Assembly: GCA_963772455.1 (NCBI GenBank) | Contig: CAVYXJ010000010.1 | Span: forward strand, 402,724-466,723 | Direction of reading: 5' to 3' | Length of the DNA: 64,000 nucleotides | From: Candidatus Bathyarchaeota archaeon | GTDB lineage: Archaea; Thermoproteota; Bathyarchaeia; Bathyarchaeales; Bathycorpusculaceae | Part shown: positions 8,163-29,681 of the stretch, one piece after another | How the letters are laid out: the number at the start of each line of letters is the position of its first letter | Numbering within the stretch: the stretch's first letter is position 1 | Program-made: the position numbers and the translations under genes | The notes under the pieces: generated by a model | Seen by the model: the letters and a program-made list of their open reading frames with translations, nothing else | The model's database searches: none | What the model was told of the DNA's origin: nothing

Positions 8163-8239
8163 TGGAGCCTCGAGCGGGCCTTGCTCCCGCGGCCTGCTGC
8201 TTACAAGGCAGCCGCTCTACTGGGCTGAGCTATCGAGGC
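8163..8239 (-). tRNA. tRNA-Thr(UGU), encoded CCA, atypical D and T loops
   Basis: GCCTCGA/TCGAGGC acceptor, GCTC/GAGC D stem, GCTGC-CTTGTAA-GCAGC anticodon arm, GCGGG/CCCGC T stem with loop AGCAAGG. Confidence 0.9.
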
Positions 8240-8794: not shown

Positions 8795-8889
8795 ATGACA
8801 CCATGCATAGGCCAAACAACAACGACGCAACACACTATATACGAGAAATATGTGTTTCACCAAACGCCAAACAGACACTACCATTGGCC
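8795..8889 (+). repeat. 5' arm of the 23S pre-rRNA processing stem (pairs with about 11916-12002), including a BHB-like motif
   Basis: ccatgcataggccaaaca (8801-8818) complements tgtttggtctatgcatgg (11980-11997); cagacactac (8872-8881) complements gtagtgtctg (11925-11934); bulges aaa and ata flank the cgcc/agcg central helix. Confidence 0.85.
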
Positions 8890-11915
<3,026 letters not shown>

Positions 11916-12002
11916 CGAGTCAATGTAGTGTCTGAGCGATATTTGGTTGAGACGCATATTTCGGTGTAGTGTGATGTAGTGTTTGGTCTATGCATGGCGT
12001 AA
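11916..12002 (+). repeat. 3' arm of the 23S pre-rRNA processing stem
   Basis: Imperfect reverse complement of 8795-8889, followed by T-rich terminator-like runs. Confidence 0.85.
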
Positions 12003-13610: not shown

Positions 13611-14679
13611 ATGATGGATTAGGGTAATTTTCCATTTGGATATGGATCATTTTTATACAGCTCTTGAAGAGCGAGAGCACCCAGAAATTAAGGGAAGACC
13701 CGTCATTGTAGGTTCTGACCCAAAAGAAGGAAAAGGCAGAGGAGTCGTTAGCACAAGTAATTATGAAGCAAGAAAGTCTGGAGTGCGTTCAGGTATGCCT
13801 ATTTCTCAAGCATGGCGGCTTTGTCCACGTGCAGTTTATTTGCCGCCGAACTTTCAATTGTACATCAAAGTTTCTGACGAAATCATGGAAATAGCTCGTA
13901 AGTATGCTTGGAAGTTTGAGCAGTGGGGAATTGACGAAGCCTTTTTGGATGTAAGTGACAAGGTTTGGGACTGGACGGGGGCGAAGTTGTTGGCCCTTCA
14001 GATTAAGCAAGAAATTAAGGACAAAGAGGGAATCACAGCATCGATAGGTGTGGGACCAAATAAATTGGTGGCTAAAATTGCAAGCGATTATCAGAAGCCC
14101 GATGGTTTAACCATCGTCAAAGAAGAGGAAGTGGAAAAATTCCTTGATCCCTTACCTGTGCGCAAGTTGCTTTGGGTGGGGCGCAAAACCGAGCCAAAAC
14201 TTAAGGAACTGGGAATAAACACTATTGGCGACTTAGCCAGCTACGACCCAACAAAGCTCTCTTCGATGTTTGGAGCGATGGGTTTGCAGATGCATATTCT
14301 ATCTAAGGGAATTGACAAAAGCGAAGTCGAGGAACGTGTGGGCGTCAAAAGCGTTAGTCACGAAACCACGTTTGAAGAAGATACAGCAGACTCCACAATT
14401 ATTTTTCAAGCATTAGATGCACTCTGTGAAAATGTTTTAAGGGAAACCGTAGATCAACACTTGCTTTTTAAAACTGTAACTGTAAAAATTCGTTATCAAG
14501 GCTTTGAGACTCACACAAGAAGCAAAACCCTACCTTTCTTGACTAACCGTCTTCGCGACCTGCAAAAAACCGCCAACGAATTGCTTTTTACCTATTTACA
14601 AAAAGACCGAAAGGTCAGGTTGATTGGAGTGAGAGTTTCAAGTTTGGTTTCTGGAGAAAAACAGCGTACATTGGTTTAG
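13611..14679 (+). CDS. dinB: DNA polymerase IV (Y family); the start ATG is one base out of frame with RVIFHLDMD
   Basis: HLDMDHFY, STSNYEAR..GV.SGMP, GIDEAFLD, SIGVGPNKLVAKIASD..KPDG, C-terminal VRLIGV. Confidence 0.95.
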
Positions 14680-15227
14680 AGTTCAGTAATTTTTTTGGGT
14701 ACAAGAAGTTTTCCATATTCTTCTTCGCTGGCTACATCGCTCAGTGATTTTCTTGTTCGAACAATATTTAAGAGTTTACTGGAAAGGTCAATGTTGTTCT
14801 CTGGGTATCCGACTGCGAGCATTATTAGGACTTCAAAGTTTTCTGGGATTTTTAAAACGGTTTTAACTTCTTTTTCGTTGAAACTTCCAACACAGCAGGT
14901 TCCTAAACCCAAGCTGGTGGCAACTAAAACCATGTTCTCCATCGCCAATGCAACGTCGATGGCATACCAATCGGGCGAAGCTTTTTTGTCACCGCATGCA
15001 ACAATCACAAGCGGGGATTGGTTAAGGAACTTTGCCCAAGTACCCCCAGACAATGCTTTACGTTTTTCAGGATCAGTAACTGCGATGAAGTGCCAGGGTT
15101 CAATGTTTTTCGCTGAAGGAGCCAGCCGACCAGCCTCCAAAATTTTCTCGAGTTTTTCTCTTTCAACTGGCTTGTCTTGGTAGTTGCGGATTGAATGCCG
15201 TTCCTGAACAGCTTCAAAAACATCCAT
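14676..15227 (-). CDS. Nitroreductase family protein
   Basis: RHSIRNY, APSAKNIEPWHF, LGLGTC, LAVGYP motifs. Confidence 0.92.
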   Translation of the reverse strand: MDVFEAVQERHSIRNYQDKPVEREKLEKILEAGRLAPSAKNIEPWHFIAVTDPEKRKALSGGTWAKFLNQSPLVIVACGDKKASPDWYAIDVALAMENMVLVATSLGLGTCCVGSFNEKEVKTVLKIPENFEVLIMLAVGYPENNIDLSSKLLNIVRTRKSLSDVASEEEYGKLLVPKKITEL

Positions 15228-15327: not shown

Positions 15328-15984
15328 TTATTCTTCATATTTTGTTGGATCAGTGATGCTTGCTTCTTTGAAGGCTTTTTTGCGGTTGTTGCAGGATTCG
15401 CATTTGCCACAGTGTTTGACTCTATCACGATAACAGGACCATGTTAATTCAAAGGGTACGCCTAGTTCCGCGCCATCTTTGAATAGGTCAGATTTGCGTT
15501 TGCCGCTGAAGGGTGCTTGAATAATGATTTCTTCGCAGGTCCCCAATTGGGCAGCTTTCTCGAAGGCTTCGTAGAATTCTCGTCGGCAGTCAGGGTAGAA
15601 GGGTTCATCTGAGCCTTGGGCGCCATAAAAAATTGTGTTAGCTCCAACAGCGACGGCGTAGGCTACTGCTGTAGAAAGGAAAATTGCATTTCGAAATGGT
15701 ACAATGATTGGAGCAGTGAACTCCGAGGTCAAAGGAATTTCGGTATTGCAAAGTGACGTTACATCGTTAAAGATTTCTTTTAAGGCAGAGAGGTCAATAA
15801 TTTTTGTAGTTGTGCCTAATTTTTTGGCGATTTGTTTGGCACATTCAGTTTCTTTTACGGCGATTTGTCCATAGTTGAAGGTAATGGGGTAAATTTGGTA
15901 GCCTTGGTTTTTTGCCCAGTAAGCGACTGTTGCAGAGTCTGGTCCACCGCTAAGAACGATAACACATTTTTTTGGAAGTTTCAT
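15328..15984 (-). CDS. queC: 7-cyano-7-deazaguanine (preQ0) synthase
   Basis: LSGGPDS PP-loop, FNYGQ, VPFRN, YPDCR, TWSCY...HCGKCESC Zn site. Confidence 0.95.
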   Translation of the reverse strand: MKLPKKCVIVLSGGPDSATVAYWAKNQGYQIYPITFNYGQIAVKETECAKQIAKKLGTTTKIIDLSALKEIFNDVTSLCNTEIPLTSEFTAPIIVPFRNAIFLSTAVAYAVAVGANTIFYGAQGSDEPFYPDCRREFYEAFEKAAQLGTCEEIIIQAPFSGKRKSDLFKDGAELGVPFELTWSCYRDRVKHCGKCESCNNRKKAFKEASITDPTKYEE

Positions 15985-16518
15985 TTATTCTGCCTTCTGC
16001 ATTTGTGGTTTCTTGTATTCTCCGAACCATCTTTGGAATATTTCAGTTCTCTTTAATAACTTGAAAATTGGCCATCCGATGAGTACGCTTGCAATGGCGT
16101 TTCCAAGGGCAACGTATGCTATGGTGGGAAGAAGCGGTAGCCCGTAAAGGTAGGATAACATCCAACCGACTGTTGTGCCTAAAACTGCAGAATAAGCTAT
16201 GCAGGTTCCAATTACTGTGAAGTCTTTTTTGATGCGTTTGTAACCGTAGTAGACTAAAAAGGACATGGCAAACGAAGGTATAGTGTTTAGCAAGTCAATT
16301 GGACCTGCTGTTGAGAATATGTTACCAACGAATACTCCAAGTGTGTGACCAAAAACTCCCGCTAAACCAAGTAATGGAACAATAGCGAGCAAAGAGTCTG
16401 CTATTCGAATTTGAATTGGTCCATAAGAGAATGGTCCGAGAACAACAACTAGCGCTGCATAGAGTGCAGCATAAATCGCTATTAGAGCAATATTTTTAGT
16501 TCGTATTTTCAAGTGCAT
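15985..16518 (-). CDS. queT: QueT-family (COG4708) preQ precursor transporter, ECF S-component
   Basis: IALIAIYAALY....PFSYGPIQIRIA motif, 5-6 TM helices; stop codon abuts the queC start. Confidence 0.88.
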   Translation of the reverse strand: MHLKIRTKNIALIAIYAALYAALVVVLGPFSYGPIQIRIADSLLAIVPLLGLAGVFGHTLGVFVGNIFSTAGPIDLLNTIPSFAMSFLVYYGYKRIKKDFTVIGTCIAYSAVLGTTVGWMLSYLYGLPLLPTIAYVALGNAIASVLIGWPIFKLLKRTEIFQRWFGEYKKPQMQKAE

Positions 16519-16592
16519 TTTTCTCCCTACTCCCGGGTTTTATTTTGGTTGGCGGAACGGGTAGGAGAATTCACTCACCCGCCAATTGCCCC
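16519..16592 (-). promoter_or_regulatory. Candidate preQ-type riboswitch in the queT-queC leader
   Basis: TTGGCGG/CCGCCAA stem; loop TTCTCCTAC complementary to the SD region GTAGGGAGAA; A-rich linker AAAATAAAAC; mutually exclusive alternative hairpin. Confidence 0.6.
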
Positions 16593-16661
16593 ATTAATTA
16601 TTTGAGTTGCCTAAAAATGTTGTGAAAGATTTCATCGTAACTTGCGTTTGTTTGGTATATT

Positions 16662-16703
16662 TAAACTAATGTTAGTCAAGAAAGTTTGACTAAACTTAGT
16701 CAA
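16662..16703. promoter_or_regulatory. Tandem palindromic operator-like sites
   Basis: Perfect TTGACTAA-AC-TTAGTCAA (16686-16703) and degenerate TAAACTAA-TG-TTAGTCAA (16662-16679). Confidence 0.55.
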
Positions 16704-16768
16704 GAAACCTTTACGAAAATGCATTTATCAAGTGAAAAATAAAGCATGTCTATAGGAGAGCGAGGGAC

Positions 16769-16939
16769 ATGGCATTAAACCACTATGTAATAAATCATAG
16801 ACTTCTAATACAAATGCAAAAGAAAGGTTGCATTTTTTGCGCCATATGCCACCAACCTATTGTTGAAGGGCAGCGAGTGGCTTCAAGAAAATCTACAGCT
16901 GTACGTCATGAAGAATGTTATCAGAAATCATTTATTTAA
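16769..16939 (+). CDS. 56-aa zinc-finger protein (CxxC...HxxC)
   Basis: Manual translation MALNHYVINHRLLIQMQKKGCIFCAICHQPIVEGQRVASRKSTAVRHEECYQKSFI*; purine-rich RBS upstream. Confidence 0.6.
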   Translation: MALNHYVINHRLLIQMQKKGCIFCAICHQPIVEGQRVASRKSTAVRHEECYQKSFI

Positions 16940-29603: not shown

Positions 29604-29681
29604 TGGCGGGCGGGGAGGGATTTGAACCCTCGACCCCCAACTTAGGAGGCTGGTGCTCTATCCGTACTGAGCTACTCGCCC
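29604..29681 (-). tRNA. tRNA-Arg(CCU), encoded CCA
   Basis: GGGCGAGTAGCTCAGTACGGATAGAGCACCAGCCTCCTAAGTTGGGGGTCGAGGGTTCAAATCCCTCCCCGCCCGCCA; A6-C67 acceptor mismatch. Confidence 0.95.

Follow-up and report, generated by a model that had tools for sequence, protein, structure and literature searches.

The window analysed here is a stretch of 64,000 nucleotides (nt) from Candidatus Bathyarchaeota archaeon (contig CAVYXJ010000010.1, positions 402,724 to 466,723 of the forward strand, assembly GCA_963772455.1), and all coordinates below refer to it. On its minus strand, at 16516-16592, a leader lies directly before queT and queC. The queT open reading frame (ORF; 15985-16518, minus strand, ATG at 16518-16516) encodes 177 amino acids (aa) and matches the Pfam family QueT (PF06177, 5.6e-23); the queC ORF (15328-15984, minus strand, 218 aa; Pfam PF06508, 1.4e-63) abuts it. 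The original prediction, made from the letters of the window, had quoted this queT-queC leader and read it as a candidate preQ0/preQ1 riboswitch, and both the leader sequence and the two gene assignments hold on the minus strand. Comparison with homologues reveals that the leader folds into an H-type pseudoknot that engages the Shine-Dalgarno (SD) region of queT, and that the motif is conserved in more than 180 loci overall, with a single copy in the window's own genome. The leader probably constitutes the whole 5' untranslated region (UTR) and acts in cis as a translational OFF riboswitch of an uncatalogued class, sensing a 7-deazaguanine that is most plausibly preQ0.

The pseudoknot is built of two helices, P1 and P2, and the loops L1, L2 and L3, all on the minus strand. 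P1 pairs UUGGCGG (16579-16585) with CCGCCAA (16549-16555). The sequence enclosed by P1 starts with L1, GUGAGUGAA (16570-16578), continues with the 5' strand of P2, which consists of the anti-SD UUCUCCUAC and the triplet CCG (16558-16569), and closes with L2, the dinucleotide UU (16556-16557). After P1 follows L3, an A-rich linker (CCAAAAUAAAACC, 16536-16548) ending in an AAA-CC tract, and then the 3' strand of P2 (16521-16535), which is made up of CGG, a GA bulge and GUAGGGAGAA and holds the SD. The queT start codon (16516-16518) stands 2 nt further on. The loop segment TTCTCCTAC(CCG), in full UUCUCCUACCCG (16569-16558), is complementary to (CGG..)GTAGGGAGAA (16535-16521), and the duplex of loop and tail in the window's leader (row L001) is worth -11.3 kcal/mol according to RNAduplex. 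Among the homologues the leaders measure 56-76 nt; P1 has a GGCGG/CCGCC core and 5-8 base pairs (bp), L1 is 9-13 nt long, P2 has 12-14 bp with interruptions, and the linker ranges between 4 and 16 nt.

Among 61 related genomes QueT was detected in 52, and the same leader precedes queT directly in 27 of the 30 loci fetched from relatives. Loci L001-L025 belong to the same genus and L026 and L027 to further families within its order; at L028-L030 a different, smaller leader stands before a QueT paralogue that is about 31% identical. A degenerate pattern derived from the 27 leaders, 26 of which it matched, was scanned over one genome per prokaryote species and returned at least 119 stretches. Among the 119 matches listed, 99 are true instances and the other 20 are chance matches in GC-rich bacterial DNA. 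Eighty of the matches listed carry titles: all 68 archaeal records contain the motif and the 12 bacterial ones are chance matches, from a scan in which bacteria were not searched systematically. The titled archaeal matches listed are mostly metagenome-assembled genomes (MAGs) of Bathyarchaeota or Bathyarchaeia, with three from Methanomethylicota/Methanomethylicus, three from Promethearchaeota/Hodarchaeota, several MAGs labelled Nitrososphaerota and some labelled just 'archaeon'.

These searches yielded 122 distinct homologous leaders (alignment A2). MAFFT lost the register of P2, whose C-rich and G-rich tracts can pair in any register, and because its pairing matrix could not fix that register, a covariance model, R1, was built on 19 seeds of the same length with the pseudoknot as its structure (65 positions, 13 P2 pairs modelled). 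Alignment A5 consists of 100 of the 122 leaders aligned to R1, 98 of which matched. A second set, A6, was collected by R1 from whole genomes and contains 66 distinct sequences.

P1 is supported by compensated changes in A2 (n = 122). Its outer core pair is GC in 101 leaders, AU in 14 and GU in 7, and its closing pair is GC in 108 and CG in 14, with no leader unpaired at either position; the variable core pairs are never broken although the search pattern allowed A-C, G-G and C-C. The three central pairs are invariant, being fixed by the search pattern. Up to three extra pairs flank the core in many leaders, the first of them being UA in 61, AU in 14, UG in 4, CG in 2 and another combination in 41. 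RNAalifold applied to A6 predicts the P1 stem by itself.

The pairing of the loop with the SD region covaries as well. When the loop of each leader was paired with its own tail by RNAduplex, the mean energy was -12.8 kcal/mol, compared with -11.2 for the tails of other leaders and -9.0 for the shuffled own tail. Matched variants of the two strands include UUCUCC/GGAGAA, GCUUCCC/GGGAGGC, CACCUCC/GGAGGUG, CCACCUC/GAGGUG, CCCACC/GGUGG and CCCACCUCC/GGAGGUGG, and further ones are UUGCCUCC/GGGGGGCAA, GUCCUCCC/GGGAGGGAC, CAUCUC/GAGAUG (L089) and GUCUCUUGC/GCAGAGAGAC (L102). Several of these depart from the SD/anti-SD consensus, and the pairing extends past the SD core; therefore it is the pairing itself that is conserved, and not merely two ribosome-related motifs. 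Over P1 and P2 together, 94.2% of the cells in A5 are paired against 84.5% after shuffling, and 160 double-sided changes occur against 43.3 +/- 5.6; none of 500 shuffles reached either value. Twelve pairs show a double-sided change against 8.9 in shuffled alignments (2 of 500 reached this), and controls in which the strands were slid are only 37-56% paired. All 10 variable pairs of P2 show double-sided changes in A5. Some of the double changes counted in A5 arise because both strands have slipped by one base (UCCC/GGGA versus CUCC/GGAG); the distal P2 pairs are truly substituted (GU 20, GC 19, CG 14, UA 11, AU 8). Covariation is also seen at the two pairs adjoining the CCG: the loop C has become U in six leaders (L018, L032, L037, L075, L103 and L105), and all six have an A in the tail where most have G. 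The result is replicated in A6, where 92.1% of cells are paired (83.1% in shuffles) and 90 cells are changed on both sides (26.0 +/- 3.7 in shuffles).

Because P1 and the loop-to-SD pairing P2 both covary strongly, this fold, a 7-bp stem with a pseudoknot closed across an A-rich linker, is real. It is the arrangement that had been proposed as Fold A, and the covariation in related leaders that had been named beforehand as its check is present in both the 122-leader and the 66-sequence set. The unpaired nucleotides at the junction of the helices are near-invariant in two phyla. L1 carries a near-invariant G-U-G (G in 66/67, U in 63/67 and G in 62/67 of A6), L2 is U in 96/98 and U in 98/98 of A5 and U in 63/67 and U in 66/67 of A6, and the end of L3 keeps AAA in 65-66/67 and CC in 66/67 of A6.

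A second structure of the original prediction, Fold B (CGGGU/ACCCG), had been proposed as a mutually exclusive state that frees the SD, and the comparison does not support it. Its strands are 95% pairable in A2 with zero double-sided changes, and the 14 of 122 sequences that lack its third pair (11-35) are exactly those in which P1 is compensated. A census of minimum free energy (MFE) folds was made with the transcript start set 3 nt ahead of GGCGG, not far from the one predicted by the promoter box described below; P1 appeared in 93 of the 122 leaders, Fold B in only 16 and neither in 13. Another possible partner for the anti-SD is L1, which in most relatives continues as GAGUGGG. The resulting GUGGG/CCCAC hairpin inside the P1 loop is 85% pairable and shows 8 double changes against 5.4 expected, a value reached by 60 of 500 shuffles and thus not significant. 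It occurs in the MFE folds of P1-keeping examples such as L081, L057 and L008, in which the SD is free, and is a plausible ON state.

Upstream of the leader lies a TATA-like promoter box, TTTTTAGG (16610-16617, minus strand), 24 nt before the stem. Such a box had been noted in the window, and its position turns out to be fixed in relatives: counted from the first G of GGCGG in the 120 homologous loci whose upstream sequence was long enough, positions -34 to -29 have an A/T content of 78-90% compared with about 60% around them, and the starts of TATA-like hexamers peak at -34 (35 there, 84 between -36 and -32). Because this AT-rich box is fixed at -34 to -29, the RNA would start just before P1; with the usual archaeal distance from TATA box to start, the predicted start falls near 16588, some 5 nt upstream of the GGCGG core. 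If so, the motif would be the entire 5' UTR of the queT-queC mRNA. A scan for bacterial-type promoters and terminators, which is not relevant to archaea, stayed at the level of shuffled sequence. No sequencing run contained half of the sampled words, and two RNA-library runs contained 5% each. Placed on the region at 88% likeness, the RNA-library runs gave short contigs from relatives. One of these covers 16499-16583 with one difference and then diverges; a second contig spans 16519 to 16722 and so extends past the predicted start, with DNA carry-over possible.

In the class of the window's genome R1 finds the motif in 89 of 151 sampled genomes, in 70 of 95 high-quality genomes and in 51 of 79 genera. 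A sample of the phylum gave 26 of 151 genomes, and outside the class it was matched in only three families (9/15, 3/3 and 2/2 genomes). The phylum of a motif-bearing Asgard genome has it in 9 of 121. The genes behind the motif are very uniform. Counting the first downstream ORF of at least 90 aa, Pfam QueT follows in 105 of 112 cases in the first set, radical-SAM proteins in 4, a DUF5591 protein in 1 and a membrane family of 229-234 aa in 2; in the second set QueT follows in 52 of 56 and the membrane family in 4. Where a genome contains two or three copies of the motif, each fetched copy whose downstream ORF is readable precedes a QueT-like gene. In NCBIfam each of the four radical-SAM proteins matches a QueE model best, with a score under the curated cut-off, and the DUF5591 protein, a fragment, resembles the alpha subunit of archaeosine synthase (ArcS-alpha). 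The membrane family (L072, L083, L152, L159, L161 and L165) has no Pfam or NCBIfam match and occupies the place of QueT; by profile comparison its member at L152 is distantly related to QueT (hhalign 96.4%, E 1.2e-9), and the family may form a new branch of 7-deazaguanine transporters. Of the 122 motif loci, 52 have a QueC homologue downstream in the same orientation, after QueT or QueE, and three leaders (L048, L064 and L104) precede queE-queC. The association with 7-deazaguanine genes that had been suspected from the window alone is thus very tight. A nitroreductase/BluB-like gene (14676-15227, minus strand) lies 100 nt after queC in the window; because only 13 of 122 loci have a homologue close to the motif, it is probably outside the regulated unit.

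The window's genome, which is 92% complete, gives some indication of what QueT is used for. Its only QueC is the operon copy, and one ArcTGT-like and one ArcS-like gene are present. QueD and QueF were not found in this 92% of the genome, and neither was QueE, for which there are only weak radical-SAM matches of 21.3 and 33.9 bits (the QueE-like genes behind the motif elsewhere score 90-105 bits). As no QueD, no QueF and no convincing QueE were found, the organism probably salvages a 7-deazaguanine through QueT rather than synthesizing it de novo. The retention of QueC suggests that 7-carboxy-7-deazaguanine (CDG) may be imported, either together with preQ0 or in its place.

The pathway places preQ0 as the product of QueC and the last free intermediate before archaeosine, as set out in PMC5372724. 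On that outline an excess of preQ0, and of no other metabolite, would make sense as a signal to repress queT, queC and queE together: as the end product before insertion into tRNA, preQ0 fits leaders before queT alone, before queT-queC and before queE-queC. We therefore consider an OFF switch for a free 7-deazaguanine, most plausibly preQ0, to be the probable function of the leader. The ligand would bind at the junction of P1 and P2, which is lined by the near-invariant G-U-G of L1, UU of L2 and AAA and CC of L3, placed as in the preQ1-I topology. Binding would lock P2, hide the ribosome-binding site and so reduce the translation of both transporter and QueC. In the ligand-free state the anti-SD would be free or held by the G-rich L1 in the GUGGG/CCCAC hairpin, and the SD would be open. 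The same fold could instead recognize CDG, preQ1, archaeosine base, queuine or guanine, which we regard as unlikely. Gene context alone cannot separate the 7-deazaguanines, and a genome that keeps QueC after QueT while seemingly missing QueD and QueE could import CDG and sense it. However, repression of queC by its own substrate CDG would be illogical, free preQ1 is not expected in the window's organism since no QueF was found in its genome, and the leaders before queE-queC are best explained by end-product feedback, that is, by preQ0.

Several points weigh against the proposed riboswitch or limit the evidence for it. The window's leader considered as a single sequence is not distinguishable from chance: its nested MFE of -21.3 kcal/mol compares with -21.44 +/- 3.1 for shuffled sequence (z = 0.05) in a calculation that cannot model pseudoknots, and the weight of the argument rests on comparison. 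The covariance model aligned both A5 and A6 so as to match the pseudoknot, some of the core conservation in A2 and A5 was imposed by the search pattern, and the sequences are related, with species possibly shared by the two sets. The CCG:CGG pairing is invariant, so covariation speaks neither for nor against it, and one subtype (L026, L122-L124 and L220) lacks it. RNAduplex energies for P2 range from -9 to -17.6 kcal/mol except in L048 and L064, at about -5. Neither Fold B nor the GUGGG/CCCAC hairpin, the two ON-state helices examined, has covariation support. The RNA-library contigs, all from relatives, gave no transcript start, strand or level. No cytidine stands where preQ1-I has its specificity base, the motif having UU as L2. 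Finally, it is from comparative sequence data that we infer a riboswitch, and ligand binding is a prediction.

The low z score, and the readiness with which C-rich and G-rich tracts pair in many registers, would also be expected if the complementarity of SD-like and anti-SD-like sequence were fortuitous and without function. The comparative data already contradict that explanation: the motif is conserved in more than 180 loci, its base changes are compensated, its distance from the promoter box is fixed and its gene context is nearly exclusive. The probability of such a fortuitous match is negligible. A long P2 raises a different concern, since it might form without any ligand and make the element a constitutive damper of translation or the target of another factor. 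A pseudoknot bound by a protein or RNA (ArcTGT, ArcS or unmodified tRNA), or one that simply sets translation low without a ligand, would accord with a P2 stable enough to form alone and with the absence of a covarying switch helix, and the GAGUGG of L1 gives a loose impression of a tRNA D-loop. Nevertheless, the element is small and fills the entire predicted 5' UTR, it precedes transport and biosynthesis genes of one small-molecule pathway, and its junction bases are near-invariant across Bathyarchaeia, three further families and Asgard archaea, as in known aptamers; a constitutive damper would need no invariant unpaired bases. Such a role is improbable in our judgement. An aptamer for a 7-deazaguanine remains the reading we prefer, and the leader shows one of the features generally looked for in a riboswitch, a covarying structured element in the predicted 5' UTR of genes from one pathway.

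A wider proposal is that the motif represents the first class of riboswitch for which only archaeal examples have been seen so far, that it senses preQ0 in a pocket with no relation to the pockets of the three preQ1 classes of bacteria, and that it controls uptake by QueT and synthesis by QueE/QueC in Bathyarchaeia, three further families of the phylum and some Asgard archaea. We regard this proposal, taken as a whole, as quite possible, a shade short of probable. If true, it would describe an abundant and compact archaeal RNA sensor, present in more than half of the sampled genomes of its class. It would also give a handle on archaeosine biology, in particular on precursor salvage in uncultured Bathyarchaeia, and possibly a small regulatory part for archaeal genetics.

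A second and smaller element was observed before the QueT paralogue in the same genus. This motif B, of about 40 nt, occurs at seven loci: L028 (1440-1506), L029, L030, L195, L196, L198 and L191. It has a 5-bp stem, GGUAG/CUACC, whose loop contains UUUCCGUA, followed by UUAAAAAACC(C)GG beside the start codon. Like the motif studied here (motif A) it has a stem, a loop CCG, an A-rich run and an AAAACC(C)GG end, but it is smaller, and it looks like a minimal preQ1-I-like pseudoknot. One genome, G030, carries both, motif A at L197 and motif B at L198. Motif B has no Rfam match and is nearly invariant, so that covariation cannot be judged. A pattern for it gave four matches in 121 genomes of the family, only one of them seemingly real, and the motif seems narrow in distribution. 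A QueT homologue is preceded, at a distance of about 130 nt, by another leader, L199 (G054:C3:86110-86460), which reads GGCGG-GUUGAGCU-CCGCC and then UUUACCCC. This leader is reminiscent of P1 and of the AAACCCC tract but is not matched by R1, and may be a degenerate or different variant.

Searches with known RNA families assigned the leader to none of them. At the gathering score the 64-kb window contains no Rfam riboswitch match, only large-subunit (LSU) rRNA and two tRNAs. The 401 nt at 16400-16800 searched at E <= 10 gave only chance-level matches to unrelated families and no preQ1 model, loci from seven relatives gave no preQ1 model at E <= 1, and Rfam 15 has no family corresponding to the motif. 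The divergence from the known preQ1 classes that had been suspected is borne out by this lack of any match to the preQ1-I, preQ1-II or preQ1-III model. A literature search found no report of a preQ0 or preQ1 riboswitch in archaea, in agreement with the original prediction, with most subscription papers and supplements lying outside that search. The archaeal LSU rRNA gene of the window lies at 8885-11922 (plus strand) and the tRNA genes at 8166-8239 and 29607-29681 (both minus strand); no small-subunit rRNA is among the Rfam matches of the window. The 3' end of the LSU gene is also near queT in the relative L006.

Among known riboswitches, preQ1-I is a very small aptamer with a P2 of a few base pairs, and preQ1-II and preQ1-III are bacterial classes with embedded-hairpin and HLout architectures. 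To our knowledge few riboswitches are known in archaea, and those are shared with bacteria. PMC8752633 describes preQ1-I as an H-type pseudoknot with an A-rich L3 and a P2 formed by anti-SD and SD, in which the ligand completes the stack between the helices. According to PMC5372724, queT often lies behind preQ1 riboswitches in bacteria, and preQ1-II was first found before queT/COG4708 (work cited there). The archaeal motif resembles preQ1-I (RF00522) in its H-type pseudoknot, in the A-rich L3 directly after P1, in the anti-SD/SD pairing of P2 and in its 7-deazaguanine genes. The shared topology (PMC8752633) and related genes (PMC5372724), together with a motif B in the same genus that is even more like preQ1-I, could mean that the leader is a very divergent member of that class and not a new one. 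We consider this quite improbable, since no preQ1 model matched either the 401 nt or the seven relatives' loci, L2 is UU with no cytidine before the 3' strand of P1, and L1 and P2 are long. The base that follows L2 belongs to a P1 pair and swaps from C to G with compensation. The motif, at 65-75 nt, is about twice as long as preQ1-I, its L1 has 9-13 nt and its P2 12-14 bp with bulges, it was seen here only in archaeal records, and its likely ligand is preQ0, not preQ1. With no model match, an L2 that lacks the specificity cytidine and an L1 and P2 that are far longer, the motif, on these sequence features, is not a preQ1-I member. It shares with preQ1-II (RF01054) and preQ1-III (RF02680) a pseudoknot that sequesters the SD, but neither model matches and neither of their architectures is seen in it. 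Fluoride riboswitches occur in bacteria and archaea, according to PMC9495176, and are like the motif in being small pseudoknotted aptamers in archaeal leaders; their sequence, ligand and genes are unrelated, and that class is shared with bacteria. Set beside the three bacterial preQ1 classes, the archaeal leader would, if the proposal is true, be a fourth solution to the recognition of 7-deazaguanines.

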